Below are positions 3,001 to 52,355 of a stretch of 64,000 nt of DNA, piece after piece. The stretch lies in the IMG/VR virus record IMGVR_UViG_3300048575_000193; one strand, given 5' to 3'. The translations under genes were made by a program, and so were the position numbers. Under the pieces are notes generated by a model. It saw only the letters and a list, made by a program, of their open reading frames with translations. It did not search any database and was not told where the DNA came from. The stretch is from a virus. Numbering within the stretch: position 1 is the first letter of the stretch; the number at the start of each line of letters is the position of its first letter.

Positions 3001-3663
3001 TACGCCTACCTCATTCACGTGCAACACGGTGACGAGGACGTGAACTACCAGGGGTCCTTCACGCATAACACGAAGGTCATCAATGGTGGCGTGTCCACCT
3101 CTTGGGGAGCTTCTCTTCAGCACATGACGCTCCGGGGCATTGGGCCGGACACCTTCATCGTGACATATTCCATGGCATCCTATGGAAACGCCATGTCTAT
3201 CGGTTACGGGCGTGTCTCGGCTCAAGGCGGGTTGTCCTTGGCTATGGGGATGTCCGTAGGGGCTCCGGCATACTATTCGATCCCCTTGGGAACGGCGCCC
3301 CAGCACTACATGCTCCCATTCCGGATCACAGACTACTTCTACGGGATGCTGCAATCCTGTCGTGAGACCGGGGGCAAGGACTACTTGAGGTTCTCGCTGT
3401 ACACCTTCAGCGACACCCGTCCGGGCTTCATTGGTTTCCTCCAATCCGGTGGAAGCCGAGGAGACAGCCGGGTCATAACCTTGCCTGGGGGCCTTCACAC
3501 CTTCGCCTCCACCATCAATGGTGCCCTTCCAGGCCAGCCCATCTACATCACCAGGTACGGCGGCATCACCCCGACAAGGAATCGCGCCGGGGGAGGCATC
3601 TTTGGAATCCTTACCGGGACCGCCAACCAGATCATCGTTCAAAAGCCGGGACGTTCGGTGTAG
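13..3663 (+). CDS. Tail fibre / virion appendage-like protein (frame open to the window edge, may be 5'-truncated)
   Basis: 1216 aa, G/T/S/Y-rich. Four copies of a G(D)L(S/T)G...Q.V...(L/I)(R/Q)G.P...GQ...W....W.P spacer module flank beta-rich domains. Confidence 0.7.
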   Translation: MLGTDELSSSPILTDVNPTSHQVTSPTTEVTFTTTASLGRSVLFESRAYRAGVPIVTTTFSVYVPTAEGLRVGSAQETVEGNPEFGWAAIINPAIRRPSGGGFTAGGDLSGTSTSQVVTGLRGRPLSATDPATGQTYVWDGSMWTPTTISGSFTPGGDLTGDATDQVVSFIRGIESMDPALAADNHYVQIKRKTYYRYPYVIHVDGSDIYVMEGAPGAELASGEATTIWKFHDDGTGTGWTYVAKYDTVTDFPTLYSNADMAWDDNYLYVATYTGNHVAIINKSDMTIAGWCYSDATVLSVCIDGSGGIYAYVTAWANPRIHKFILASCLGQPTFTGTPDTDAKTDASTLIRYGTGSLWLARGWDNAVNQVETSYLTLVGTWTPSDSSNVTSAIYALGSIWVTRWDWSSICTVARVNPGDLTWVDIPMTYGAITQPFVCEVGQDVLGADAIFVSDGGWNYRIGQIDPATNTYYGYYDAPTNHVPYFMASSPAGYLYAAGYSGSYASVNYINLPLGIYSQTPITYPYYLSYADVWQLAGHDLPTATPTNGALLYYNSTSAAWETSGLYGDLTGTYPYPQVAALRGYPVRNSMPLNGQVLTWNSTNWRWEPQTPSSGGFTAGGDLSGSSTSQTVIRIQNRSVSASVPTDGQLLQYSSSSVAWVPTTPNQMTVTLGESASTDNAMYLDESRDSASPGLRAYPVKNSVYEHSVALENATNWTGGPTQPYAYDACALLSDLYLVAYRVNVSGTIYLRLRAIKYTPGTGVTVGTAVDIDVDGASNEVAYVSCTKCSNYNDTYVGGIVAWANPITGRGYILGLTVSGTTITATSVTTFRSTAVVGTGLVNYMVGYPQQGGFVLAWADSSSNTGLSQWGDLYMGSGGPTLTLHGSPVTLTSMAAANIGQIIMRSSGGSGGNIWATFGYNERRVLSGQVSAGSSTELQWYYAGAATETEARVDAYNDYGGTPGYVLTSNLYGTGDFLAGGSAAHIITGTRAGFTDYAYLIHVQHGDEDVNYQGSFTHNTKVINGGVSTSWGASLQHMTLRGIGPDTFIVTYSMASYGNAMSIGYGRVSAQGGLSLAMGMSVGAPAYYSIPLGTAPQHYMLPFRITDYFYGMLQSCRETGGKDYLRFSLYTFSDTRPGFIGFLQSGGSRGDSRVITLPGGLHTFASTINGALPGQPIYITRYGGITPTRNRAGGGIFGILTGTANQIIVQKPGRSV

Positions 3664-41232: not shown

Positions 41233-41436
41233 CTACACCAGGTAGACCCCTACGGGCATTTGCCCCGAGAGGACCTCAAGCTCGCCGTTGTGCTCGACGG
41301 CGCTCCAGATCTTACCATCACGGGTTCGGGTGATGATCCCTCTGGCTTCCCCGTCGATCCCGAAGAGGACCTCGAGGTTGTAAAGCTCATGGTTGGGGCT
41401 TACTTCGATGGTCTTGTTGGCGAGATGGATCTTCAT
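41233..41436 (-). CDS. Small hypothetical protein
   Basis: 67 aa, class I start, stop in a GGTGTAG box. Confidence 0.7.
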   Translation of the reverse strand: MKIHLANKTIEVSPNHELYNLEVLFGIDGEARGIITRTRDGKIWSAVEHNGELEVLSGQMPVGVYLV

Positions 41437-49566: not shown

Positions 49567-50028
49567 TCACACCTCCAGCCAGACAGGGTAGTCGATGTCA
49601 GCTTGCCACACAAACAGCTTCAGCATGTCCGTGTCATACACCAGCGTGCCCGCTGTTGTAGATGGCGGCATGGCAATTCGCTGTGCTGTCGTCTTGAGCA
49701 AGACCCCAGGACCACCCCCAGACGATGCAGGGACCCACCTACCTGGCCCGCTTGCAGACGGACCTAGTTTTGGTTGTATGGCATTAACACCGTCATCCAA
49801 CGCAACTGATGTGGGATCCCATTGAAACAAGCCCACACCAGTGACAAACACATGCAACGCGGATTGGTTGTACCCGTCAGTGTCCACACAGCGTAGCGCC
49901 TCCGCGTTATCAAAAATCTGGCCGATGCCCGATTCGATAGCGTGTAAGGCCCGCTCAAGATCTCTGCTCAGATCTGCGGCACGTGTCTTTCGAACGTTGC
50001 GGCTAACAGGGTAACGCGGGGGAGCCAT
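49567..50028 (-). CDS. Virion-associated / adaptor-like protein
   Basis: GLFQWDPTSVALDDGVNAIQP...GRW, GTLVYDTDMLKLFVW. Confidence 0.6.
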   Translation of the reverse strand: MAPPRYPVSRNVRKTRAADLSRDLERALHAIESGIGQIFDNAEALRCVDTDGYNQSALHVFVTGVGLFQWDPTSVALDDGVNAIQPKLGPSASGPGRWVPASSGGGPGVLLKTTAQRIAMPPSTTAGTLVYDTDMLKLFVWQADIDYPVWLEV

Positions 50029-50073
50029 CGTTACCCTGTTAGTATAAGAGAATCAGCCAAGGTCCGCCAGTCC

Positions 50074-50973
50074 TCATCCAGGGGCTCCGGGGGCTTCTTC
50101 TTCGCCATGCCTCATAGCTACACCGCGTGAGTCAACGATCGTGAGCTGCCCGTCACGGAAGAACGTGCGCTTGCCGCCCCGGATGTCCCACGCGTTCGCT
50201 GTCTCAAGGAAACGTGGTGTGTCTGCTTCGATGAGGAGCTTCTGCATAAGCATGAGGTCGTAGGTGGGGATGTGCATGTCCGCCACGAGGCAGTATTCGA
50301 AGGCCGGGACGCCGTTGATGAGGCGGTGTACCCCGTGGCTGTGGTTCTTCGCGATCCGGTAGGTGTGCCCGTCTTGGCCTACGGTGTGAAAGTAGCTGTG
50401 CCGCTCAAGCTCTTCTCGCTGGATCTCATCAAGGTTGGCCCGGAGAATCCTGAGCGCCCTCTCTTCGACGTCACGCATCTCTTTCCGGAAGTCTGTCTCG
50501 TCGGCGTTGCTTTGGTAGCGTCGGACCGAGTCGACCACCATGGGATGGAGATCCCCCATACGCGCCCCACCATTGTGGAGCCGGAAGGTCTCGAGAATGA
50601 GTTGTCGGAGGACGGGCCAAGGGTCGCCTTGAAAGGGCTCCCCAAGGCTGGTATCGTGTGGGACGAAGGCCATGCTCCCAAGGACGAAGAGCATGGCCTT
50701 CTCCGATAGCCCGGTCGCCCATGCCTCAACGCCCCGGAGGGCGAAGATGAGCGTCCCAGGGTCGGAGAGGACCTCTTTGCCCGCCGTGAGGCTCTCATGG
50801 AACTTGGGAAGCGGATAGTCTACGCCAATGCAGACGAGGATCTTGTTGTTGCCTGTGGCCCGGCGCGGCTCCCAACCTACGTTCTCCTCGAGCTGGTAGT
50901 ACCTCGTCCCCGAGGGCAGGGGGTAGATCGGGACTTTCCCCAGTTGGACAAGATCAAGTAGCAGCCGATCCAT
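50074..50973 (-). CDS. Hypothetical protein with C-terminal Cys-containing domain (EYCL...P..D.ML.QKLL)
   Basis: 299 aa. Confidence 0.75.
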   Translation of the reverse strand: MDRLLLDLVQLGKVPIYPLPSGTRYYQLEENVGWEPRRATGNNKILVCIGVDYPLPKFHESLTAGKEVLSDPGTLIFALRGVEAWATGLSEKAMLFVLGSMAFVPHDTSLGEPFQGDPWPVLRQLILETFRLHNGGARMGDLHPMVVDSVRRYQSNADETDFRKEMRDVEERALRILRANLDEIQREELERHSYFHTVGQDGHTYRIAKNHSHGVHRLINGVPAFEYCLVADMHIPTYDLMLMQKLLIEADTPRFLETANAWDIRGGKRTFFRDGQLTIVDSRGVAMRHGEEEAPGAPG

Positions 50974-51175
50974 TGCCCGGCGTTCCTACGAATTCCCACT
51001 CCGGATTGCAACCGATCTCGGTTTTGGTGTTCTTGTAGACCACCTTGATCGTCGACTTGACCCCCATGGGCTCGATCCCCTGTGTTCTCGGGTGCTCTTC
51101 TGAGCATCGAATCATCTCGTCAACGGCCTTGGTGAATCCGTCGATCAGCTCGTCTCGATGGTCTTTGAGGCTCAT
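50954..51175 (-). CDS. Small hypothetical protein (MSLKDHR...)
   Basis: 73 aa, SD GGAGGA. Confidence 0.55.
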   Translation of the reverse strand: MSLKDHRDELIDGFTKAVDEMIRCSEEHPRTQGIEPMGVKSTIKVVYKNTKTEIGCNPEWEFVGTPGNGSAAT

Positions 51176-51177
51176 GC

Positions 51178-51498
51178 TCATCCTCCTACAGCAGGCGGGG
51201 TCGCCACGTAGTTGGCCTTGGGGTCGAACGTGTGGGCAAGCTCCCCACCTTTGTACACGAACTTGCCGGTGTTGCTGAAGTTGGCAACCTCCGCTCCTTG
51301 ACGTCCAAGGCGTGTGACCTTGAAGACGAGGAATCCCTTGGCCTTCATGGCCTTGAAATGCTCTTCGGCGGCGGCGACCTCTTCCGGCTTCCGGCGGTTC
51401 CAGTAGTACTTGATGTCTCCCGTGTGTCCCAATTCGGCCATGATGCCGATGTCGTCTTCCGCCGCCGTGGTTTCCTGTGGAACGATTAGCTTTGTCAT
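51178..51498 (-). CDS. Small protein ending in Gly-Gly (ubiquitin-like candidate)
   Basis: 106 aa, C-terminus YVATPPAVGG. Confidence 0.75.
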   Translation of the reverse strand: MTKLIVPQETTAAEDDIGIMAELGHTGDIKYYWNRRKPEEVAAAEEHFKAMKAKGFLVFKVTRLGRQGAEVANFSNTGKFVYKGGELAHTFDPKANYVATPPAVGG

Positions 51499-52271
51499 TC
51501 TGTGATCCCTTCAAATTCGGCGATGTCCGCCGCGTCAAGCTCTACCTGTGCCACGATGAGCTTACCCGGGCGCTCGTAGACTTGCAAGCCAAGGAGCCGC
51601 AACGCCGCCCGAACCTTGGCCTCCGTAAGCGGAAGCTCGAGGACTTGGACCCCTGTCACCGGGGCCTGTCCAAGGGTCTCGAAGACGAGCTTGTATTGGG
51701 CATCCTCGCTGAGGGACCGGAACTTCGCGAGGGCGGGTTGGTACTCCTCGGGGAAGAGGTCCGCACGCATCTCCTGAAGACCCCAAAGCGTCCTTGAGGC
51801 GCCATCCTCACCGTAGTCGTCGTGGCAAGAGTCTCGGTGCCGGATGAGCTTGACCAGGTCCTCTTGTGTGACCTCCGAGGCAACGATCTGCACATTGGCG
51901 TCCTTGACGATCGCGGCGATTCGCGAAAGCTGGTGTTGCGCGCCGCCCTCTTCGAACTGTAGCGCGTGGTCCAAGTCCGGGCTCCAAGTAGGTGGCCCCT
52001 CAACCCCGCCTACGCTGGCGGCCTCGTCTCCGGCGTAGTAGCCCTTGGAGGGGCTGTAGATAACCGCACCCCCCAACGGAGGCGTCTCCTTCGGAGCAAC
52101 CTCGCACATGGTGTCGAGGTACTTCTTGACCTCTTCTGCCTTCAGTTGAAAGCCGGGGCGCTTCCAGTCACGCACCGTGCAATGCTTGCCGTCGCGTGTG
52201 ACCCACCAGGTCTTTCCGTCAACGTGAAGCTGGAGGCTCTGATCCTCGAATGTGTAATCGCGTACTTGCAT
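51495..52271 (-). CDS. Hypothetical protein
   Basis: 258 aa, 9 nt after a GGTGTAG box. Confidence 0.75.
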   Translation of the reverse strand: MQVRDYTFEDQSLQLHVDGKTWWVTRDGKHCTVRDWKRPGFQLKAEEVKKYLDTMCEVAPKETPPLGGAVIYSPSKGYYAGDEAASVGGVEGPPTWSPDLDHALQFEEGGAQHQLSRIAAIVKDANVQIVASEVTQEDLVKLIRHRDSCHDDYGEDGASRTLWGLQEMRADLFPEEYQPALAKFRSLSEDAQYKLVFETLGQAPVTGVQVLELPLTEAKVRAALRLLGLQVYERPGKLIVAQVELDAADIAEFEGITE

Positions 52272-52355
52272 CGATCCCTCCTACACCAGATCCAGCCAAG
52301 CCTGCCACGCATCGGCGATCTGCTTGTCGGTCAAGGGTTCACCATAGTCGTCACC

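Follow-up and report, generated by a model that had tools for sequence, protein, structure and literature searches.

In this work we have analysed a stretch of viral DNA of 64,000 nucleotides (nt), the window, which is part of the 312-kb IMG/VR record IMGVR_UViG_3300048575_000193 of a giant and uncultured phage. Our subject is a short block of minus-strand genes and, within it, two of its products: a protein of 106 amino acids (aa) that ends in two glycines, called here the GG protein, and a 299-aa protein with a conserved cysteine, called here the partner. Could such a pair be the core of a ubiquitin-like conjugation system carried by a phage? The features on which the discussion relies are the following.

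51498..51178, minus strand: 106-aa open reading frame (ORF) of the GG protein, C-terminus ...ATPPAVGG, ORF confirmed
51181-51186, minus strand: codons of Gly105 and Gly106 of the GG protein, with the stop codon at 51178-51180
50973..50074, minus strand: 299-aa ORF of the partner, containing ...FEYCLVADMHIPTYDLMLMQKLL (EYCLV segment), ORF confirmed
50509..50973, minus strand: N-terminal domain of the partner, residues 1-155, delimited from alignments, hidden Markov model (HMM) ranges and the AlphaFold (AF2) model
50179..50505, minus strand: conserved C-terminal domain of the partner, residues about 157-265, delimited from alignment, model and fold matches
50290-50292, minus strand: codon of Cys228 of the partner, at the end of strand 4
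50074..50178, minus strand: C-terminal tail of the partner, residues 266-299, poorly conserved, its last 16 residues modelled with low confidence
52271..51495, minus strand: 258-aa ORF, confirmed
51175..50954, minus strand: 73-aa ORF, confirmed
52281..52287, minus strand: GGTGTAG box, 10 nt upstream of the first ATG, that of the 258-aa ORF (GGTGTAG-GAGGG-ATCG-ATG)

The initial annotation had described four tightly packed ORFs of 258, 106, 73 and 299 aa behind a GGTGTAG box, and this layout was found as described, with all four on the minus strand. The 258-aa gene shares 4 nt (ATGA) with the 106-aa gene, the start of the 73-aa gene falls on the stop codon of the GG gene or immediately past it, and the 73-aa and 299-aa genes have 20 nt in common. 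The composition of all four ORFs is of the coding type, with a GC content at third codon positions (GC3) of 0.69-0.75, the highest value being that of the 258-aa ORF, versus about 0.41 at second positions (GC2). The same annotation had taken the four genes together as one functional operon, and here the analysis of neighbourhoods led elsewhere: the conserved unit is the gene of the 106-aa GG protein together with that of the 299-aa Cys partner. The four-gene operon as a functional unit is ruled out, as the 258-aa and 73-aa proteins have no homologue in any of 38 related loci and no family matches.

These 38 loci come from IMG/VR, GenBank phages, metagenomes and one metagenome-assembled genome (MAG), and their ORFs were scanned with HMMs of both families. 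A homologue of the partner lies 3' of the GG gene in 36 of them; one locus has the reversed order and in one the contig ends too early. The partner usually starts between -8 and +7 nt from the stop codon of the GG gene, and at a few loci one small unrelated ORF stands between the two. Apart from an E1 (activating) enzyme in one subclade, no other gene recurs across the loci, and in the loci examined no recurrent peptidase or biosynthetic gene adjoins the module. The flanking genes differ by locus and include those of DNA polymerase, SbcC, NAMPT, terminase and structural proteins, and because they vary so widely the pair behaves as a self-contained cassette. The longest contig which carries the two proteins is about 341 kb. 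The partners have diverged far: pairwise BLAST of the window's partner against those of loci L004 and L005 is not significant, and the link is made by the HMM (E 1.7e-9 and 2e-4). When 185,579 species genomes were scanned for a pattern, one match came up, on a Planctomycetaceae MAG contig, a count which is a lower bound since the pattern was narrow; tblastn with the GG protein and with its partner found nothing in 50,697 phage genomes. In a full-text literature search we found no description of a module made of the GG protein and its partner.

Some of the loci have peculiarities of their own. The reversed order is that of L039:726-2687, where a 451-aa protein with the Cys domain stands ahead of the GG gene. 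A 79-kb phage contig carries two extra Cys-domain paralogues just upstream of the GG gene (L006:2400-2867 and L006:3011-3559), besides the regular downstream partner. In L004, the 197-kb record of Virus Rctr197k (KX853510.1), an annotated CRISPR repeat region (3312-3566) and transposase-like genes lie less than 2 kb from the module.

The terminal di-glycine is the most conspicuous feature of the 106-aa protein. All five of its closest homologues (47-67% identity) end in GG, and so do 130 of the 150 best representatives of the family, most of which are 74-125 aa long. The family itself, mostly viral, comprises 713 clusters, which were picked out by a profile at E <= 0.001 from 1.84 billion cluster representatives. 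Its consensus starts with GD(T)K..WD; a helix follows, next comes KG(F/Y).(A/V)F.V, and at the end stands ..FDP.A..(I/V)(I/V)..P...GG. Look-alikes in the ESM Atlas are mostly viral hypothetical proteins, and a BFVD search returned only unnamed proteins, probably members of the same family. It had been cautioned that the two glycine codons also form the Shine-Dalgarno site of the next gene, and this is true of the window, where they are GGA GGA and make up a GGAGG ahead of the 73-aa gene. Over 20 loci, however, GGC is used 11 times for the two glycines, GGG 9, GGA 9 and GGT 7 times. Since all four glycine codons are in use, the GG is selected at the level of the protein and not as a ribosome-binding site; an origin by chance or as a Shine-Dalgarno artefact is ruled out by these codons and by the family-wide GG. 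Nearly all of the 38 loci have the GG ending, the exceptions being IPG, VAG and GGC. They are found in L004:4800-5231 (...TIPG), L008/L009:3989-4216 (...PVAG) and L017:1819-2109 (...RGGC), the last of which, with one extra Cys, is a possible precursor.

What kind of fold carries this tail? The AlphaFold model of the GG protein, built on 110 sequences (mean predicted local distance difference test, pLDDT, 74), has strands at 17-23 and 28-34, a helix at 38-54 and strands at 57-61 and 96-100, with a variable loop before the last strand and the tail behind it. A Foldseek search of this model against the PDB gave nothing significant (E >= 0.2), and its list consists almost wholly of ubiquitin-type folds. 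In the exhaustive search with VIA-align the scores are weak (Z 3.5-5.4) and the matches are almost all beta-grasp proteins, among them MoaD, TtuB, CysO, SUMO, Urm1 and an archaeal ubiquitin-like protein (Ubl); several, for example MoaD, TtuB, CysO and SUMO, align up to the last residue of the GG protein. We regard the 106-aa protein, with moderate confidence, as a candidate ubiquitin-like protein of the beta-grasp type. The beta-grasp Ubl proposed in the initial annotation agrees with the kind of fold that is matched, but the scores are weak and no curated model recognizes the protein.

The region common to all partners is the C-terminal part of about 100 residues, while the N-terminal parts differ between clades. 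Among 31 distinct partners Cys228 is present in all, Asp239 in 30, and Gln185 and Leu181 in 29 each. In 15 of the 31, many of them short, the second residue past the Cys is a His, which the window's clade does not have. The N-terminal domain (residues 1-155) is common only to the window's clade of long partners, and elsewhere Trp-rich (WxxWN) or other regions take its place. In many short partners (for example L017:2110-2352 and L009:4221-4607) a Thr/Ser-rich N-terminal region with about three W-x-x-W-N repeats is followed by a charged, coiled-coil-like linker and then the Cys domain; these W-x-x-W-N regions may bind a target. The N-terminal domain of the window's partner is a candidate for the part that recognizes the target. 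A likeness of this domain to capsid or baseplate proteins was not trusted (Z about 3; Foldseek probability <= 0.06).

The model of the partner has a pLDDT of 87, and of about 90 in the N-terminal domain. The C-terminal domain is built of helices 159-179 and 183-192, strands 194-198, 204-208, 215-219 and 222-228, and helices 237-250 and 252-258. Strand 4 ends with Cys228, and 8 residues further on come the conserved Pro236 and the helix 237-250. This order of secondary structure, a helix, a four-strand meander and a crossover helix, fits the UBC type, that of the E2 (conjugating) enzymes. With residues 157-257 the best VIA-align matches are RWD domains (Z 4.4, 4.1 and 4.1) and the E2 Ubc9 (Z 4.4), values which lie where VIA-align warns that a common arrangement can score equally. 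The next rows, more than 15 of the UBC superfold at Z 2.8-3.5, include a UEV-like domain, FANCL, E2S, Ubc8, Ube2W, E2 E1, a chain of the Citrobacter Bub complex and CdnG-E2 of CBASS, an anti-phage signalling system based on cyclic oligonucleotides. Because the scores are within the range of that warning, we take the E2-like fold as a lead with some support but not as demonstrated. The earlier suggestion of an E2-like Cys partner is in keeping with the invariant Cys and with RWD and UBC domains as the best fold matches, but the likeness exists at the level of the fold only. Cys228 is a candidate catalytic residue.

It may also be that the partner performs no chemistry. As a non-catalytic binder of the RWD or UEV type it could grip the tail of the GG protein, the pair acting as an adaptor or regulator in which GG and Cys are kept for fit or stability. 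Non-catalytic RWD and UEV domains indeed score as well as true E2s, the His-Pro-Asn (HPN) motif of the E2s is absent and most carriers encode no E1. We nevertheless judge such a non-covalent pair to be quite unlikely. A strictly terminal GG across hundreds of clusters, together with an invariant Cys which has an Asp nearby, are signatures of carboxylate chemistry, and it would make no sense for one subclade to have acquired a translationally coupled adenylating E1.

The E1 in question is a ThiF protein. In the window's own clade eight loci have such a protein upstream of the GG gene and on the same strand, confirmed by Pfam in five (E 4e-73 to 7e-65) and by phmmer in three. One of them is the 228-kb contig L001, in which the ThiF gene (Pfam 4e-73) precedes the GG gene by 2.8 kb, both being on one strand; a scan of metagenomes for the clade yielded seven further loci, four of them confirmed by Pfam (E 2e-72 to 7e-65). 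At three loci (L029, L030 and L031) the ThiF gene overlaps the start of the GG gene by 4 nt, which results in a coupled operon of E1, tag and partner. The partner-protein tree places the E1-linked loci in a single clade (97/99) and the window with P0007 and P0008 in another (100/99); neither the remaining clade nor the outgroup has an E1. E. coli MoeB (2e-51, over the full length) is the nearest relative of the linked E1, followed by ThiF and Uba4. The nucleotide loop and both CxxC zinc motifs are retained, but a Met stands in place of the loop Cys of MoeB, and because of this replacement the enzyme needs a nucleophile from outside. Such an enzyme should be able to make an acyl-adenylate, and the invariant Cys of the partner is the natural candidate for the nucleophile.

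Two further observations concern these E1-linked loci. A gene of the RNA ligase family adjoins the E1, tag and partner genes in L001:3239-4180 (Pfam RNA_ligase 3e-14), L023:2081-3022(-) and L025:9260-10201(-). In L023:1193-2148 and L025/L026:8372-9327 the partner is split into two overlapping ORFs, of 115 aa for the N-terminal and 221 aa for the C-terminal part; a frameshift, whether programmed or not, or an error in sequencing could be the cause.

More questions are raised by the kinship of this E1. Is the GG protein perhaps a sulfur carrier? In that case it would be a relative of MoaD, ThiS or TtuB in function, adenylated by a MoeB-type E1 and turned into a thiocarboxylate, and the Cys of the partner would carry a persulfide or sit in a sulfur-using enzyme, for instance one for a thio-modified nucleoside or a cofactor needed in infection. 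That MoeB, ThiF and Uba4 are the nearest relatives of the linked E1, and that it has no loop Cys, would agree with this, as would the presence of MoaD, TtuB, CysO and Urm1 among the fold matches of the GG protein; nor is the module accompanied by a JAB or other isopeptidase. However, the domain of the partner matches RWD and UBC domains and not rhodanese, PP-loop, MoaE or ThiG folds, and its hypervariable N-terminal half is better suited to the recognition of proteins than to a fixed chemical reaction. Moreover, no biosynthetic enzyme recurs beside the module, the flanks of which differ by locus. We consider a sulfur-carrier system unlikely, but it is the main rival of the reading that we prefer, and one on which the initial annotation had touched only briefly.

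The reading which we prefer is that the 106-aa GG protein constitutes, together with its 299-aa Cys partner, a minimal, phage-borne ubiquitin-like conjugation module, and we regard its chances as evenly balanced. It is carried by the strict pairing of the two genes, the selection on GG at the protein level, the invariant Cys with its Asp, the beta-grasp-like model and the linkage to an E1 in relatives. In such a module an E1 of the MoeB/ThiF type would first adenylate the free Gly-Gly carboxylate of the beta-grasp protein. This enzyme would be supplied by the phage itself in one related subclade, and by the host in the window's phage and most other carriers. Cys228 in the UBC/RWD-like domain of the partner would then attack the adenylate or an E1-bound intermediate and carry the tag as a thioester, and the fast-changing N-terminal region of the partner would select the protein which receives it. 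From adenylation and thioester to the use of a host E1 and the transfer to a target, these are steps that we infer. As to the source of the E1, enzymes of the ThiF family are present in all 14 control genomes; a host E1 is therefore generally available, and phages with none of their own can plausibly use it. The window's phage probably does so. This idea gains indirect support from the one related subclade that carries a MoeB-like E1 in the operon of the module.

A number of observations weigh against conjugation. As the initial annotation had already pointed out for the window, no ThiF-type E1 and no Prok-JAB is present there, and the same is true of the whole 312-kb record, in which the module would accordingly have no deconjugating peptidase at its side. 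ThiF is absent also from three carrier contigs that are rated 100% complete, and because these and the window's phage lack an E1, the activation step is for them purely inferred. The closest relatives of the linked E1, namely MoeB, ThiF and Uba4, serve sulfur carriers. Neither family is recognized by the established models: 110 members of the GG family match no Pfam or NCBIfam model (ThiS, ubiquitin, Prok_Ub and others) at E <= 0.01, there is no PHROG match and a sequence-profile search of the PDB found nothing, while 22 members of the partner family match no Pfam model (UQ_con, Prok-E2, RWD). Profiles of the full-length partner and of its C-terminal domain have no sequence match in the PDB even at E <= 10, PADLOC gives no relevant match for this family, components of Bil or CBASS included, and Foldseek finds no significant match to the partner model in the PDB. 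Lastly, besides the fold scores in the range of the warning mentioned above, the partner has no HPN motif, its strand running straight into the Cys.

If the two proteins do form a conjugation module, what would it be for? It could tag host proteins, tag phage proteins or interfere with a host defence that is based on Ubls. Our broader proposal, which we make tentatively and hold to be somewhat short of an even chance, is that many phage lineages own a two-protein tagging device, a ready GG tag and a mini-E2 with an exchangeable head for targeting, which borrows the MoeB or ThiF of the host and covalently marks host or phage proteins in infection.

In the window the tail-fibre genes (Mtd_N domain) lie just downstream of the module. 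Yet another explanation follows the initial annotation: perhaps the phage tag is a decoy or jammer of Ubl-based immunity which soaks up or mis-loads the E1 and E2 of Bil, Bub or type II CBASS, with the partner helping in the trap. Host defences of this kind exist and target phage tail proteins (10.1101/2023.09.04.556158), the module is found immediately ahead of tail-fibre genes, and its neighbours vary as those of a mobile accessory cassette would, all of which is circumstantial. On the other hand, the partner family has no similarity to the PADLOC models of Bil or CBASS, the E1 linked to the module resembles MoeB and not the enzymes of Bil or Cap2, and the proximity to tail genes seen in the window is not kept in other loci. 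We consider a decoy improbable as an explanation in its own right. However, a true conjugation module could itself serve such a role.

The two other genes of the block are lineage-specific passengers. None of the four window proteins (258, 106, 73 and 299 aa) matches Pfam or PHROGs, and the 258-aa protein has no match in the PDB or in phage genomes. This ORFan has the same position and the same ATGA overlap as the ThiF E1 of the related operons. A hidden E1 was nevertheless rejected, as Pfam detects no ThiF signal in the protein despite its position; it may be a non-homologous replacement of the E1. The 73-aa gene is a lineage-specific filler: in L001 the GG and partner genes overlap directly, and in L002, L005 and L015 its slot is taken by unrelated inserts.

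The GGTGTAG motif in front of the block occurs 31 times in the window versus 4.45 expected, a number reached in none of 100 shuffles; examples are 52281-52287(-), 50118-50124(-) and 41233-41239(-). It may be a late-promoter or initiation element of the phage, and the box at 52281 is probably the promoter or initiation signal of the gene block. As this box abuts the Shine-Dalgarno site, transcripts begun there would be nearly leaderless. At the other end of the block, 32 nt past the stop codon of the partner, lies a perfect 14-nt inverted repeat (50003-50042; CTAACAGGGTAACG / CGTTACCCTGTTAG, 12-nt loop). The gene that follows has its ATG (50028) at the start of the loop on the mRNA strand, and the repeat may act, between the module and the tail-fibre block, as a hairpin for processing, stabilisation or the control of translation.

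Ubl conjugation in the conflict between phages and bacteria has hitherto been studied as a bacterial defence, in Bil, Bub and type II CBASS. If the conjugation reading is true, the same chemistry is seen here from the side of the virus and in the smallest form yet seen, with no E3 (ligase), no deconjugase and usually no E1, and ubiquitin-style conjugation would be a weapon of phages besides a defence of bacteria. It would also mean that a housekeeping enzyme of the host's sulfur pathways, MoeB or ThiF, can be diverted to the tagging of proteins, which bears on the origin of ubiquitin from sulfur carriers. The operons of E1, Ubl and partner are a complete three-protein set that is open to direct reconstitution.

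How does the module compare with systems that are already known? The Bil systems (BilABCD), which make up class 6d among the operons of Iyer et al. 2006 (PMC1779556), are bacterial anti-phage sets of Ubl, E2, JAB and E1, and host defences of the Ubl type which act on phage tail proteins are the subject of a preprint (10.1101/2023.09.04.556158). The E2-like proteins of class 6d have a conserved His C-terminal to the Cys, and some prokaryotic E2-like families are without HPN (PMC1779556). Our module resembles Bil in its GG tag of probable beta-grasp fold, in its small, putatively E2-like Cys protein without the classical His of HPN and, in one subclade, in a ThiF-type E1 in the operon. The His found two residues after the Cys in about half of the partners (15/31) recalls the E2-like proteins of class 6d. 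Unlike Bil, the module is encoded by phages, has no JAB and usually no E1, and finds no match in PADLOC (partner) or Pfam; the segment from strand 4 to the Cys is much shorter in the partner, which bears a variable N-terminal extension, and the partner of the window has no His after its Cys.

With the pairs MoeB-MoaD and ThiF-ThiS (PDB 1jw9, 1zud) the module shares a GG protein, of probable beta-grasp fold in our case, and, in the related subclade, an E1 which matches E. coli MoeB at 2e-51 and has both CxxC zinc motifs. It differs from them in having no MoaE, ThiG or other sulfur-using enzyme and in having a UBC/RWD-like Cys protein instead; the tag matches no ThiS or MoaD model of Pfam, and the E1 is without the loop Cys of MoeB.

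In the archaeal SAMPs with UbaA, in TtuB and TtuC of Thermus and in Urm1 with Uba4, one E1 of the MoeB type serves to activate a GG beta-grasp protein which can modify proteins, and neither an E2 nor an E3 takes part. Urm1 is the subject of PMC9574740 and PMC7527816. The combination of a MoeB-type E1, seen in one subclade of ours, with a GG protein of actual or probable beta-grasp fold, the lack of an E3 and the minimal set of genes are common to these systems and to ours. In our module, in contrast, the Cys partner is the invariant companion and the E1 is dispensable.

Among phages, the 2006 survey of prokaryotic Ubls lists only the tail-assembly Ubl of lambda and T1 (PMC1779556). This is protein I, which has a Ubl domain and goes together with protein K, a JAB and NlpC/P60 protein (PMC1779556). 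Like the GG protein, for which the fold is a probable one, protein I is a phage-encoded beta-grasp protein with a conserved C-terminal Gly, and the module of the window also lies by tail genes. However, the Ubl of protein I is an N-terminal domain which is freed by a peptidase, whereas the tag of the module stands alone with a free GG. The partner, unlike protein K, is not a JAB or NlpC peptidase, and the linkage of the module to tail genes is not conserved, its neighbours being variable.

Type II CBASS, with Cap2 (an E1-E2 fusion) and CdnG-E2 (PDB 8hsb), has minimal bacterial domains of the E2 type which act on a C-terminal Gly, as the partner would, and chain 8hsb_B is among the fold matches of the partner (Z 2.8). 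In CBASS a cyclase serves as the "tag" instead of a beta-grasp protein; sequence similarity is lacking, and it is a defence of the host and not encoded by phages. Taken together, the module looks like the logic of Ubl, E1 and E2 in a phage-borne and stripped-down form, built from families for which there are no models as yet.

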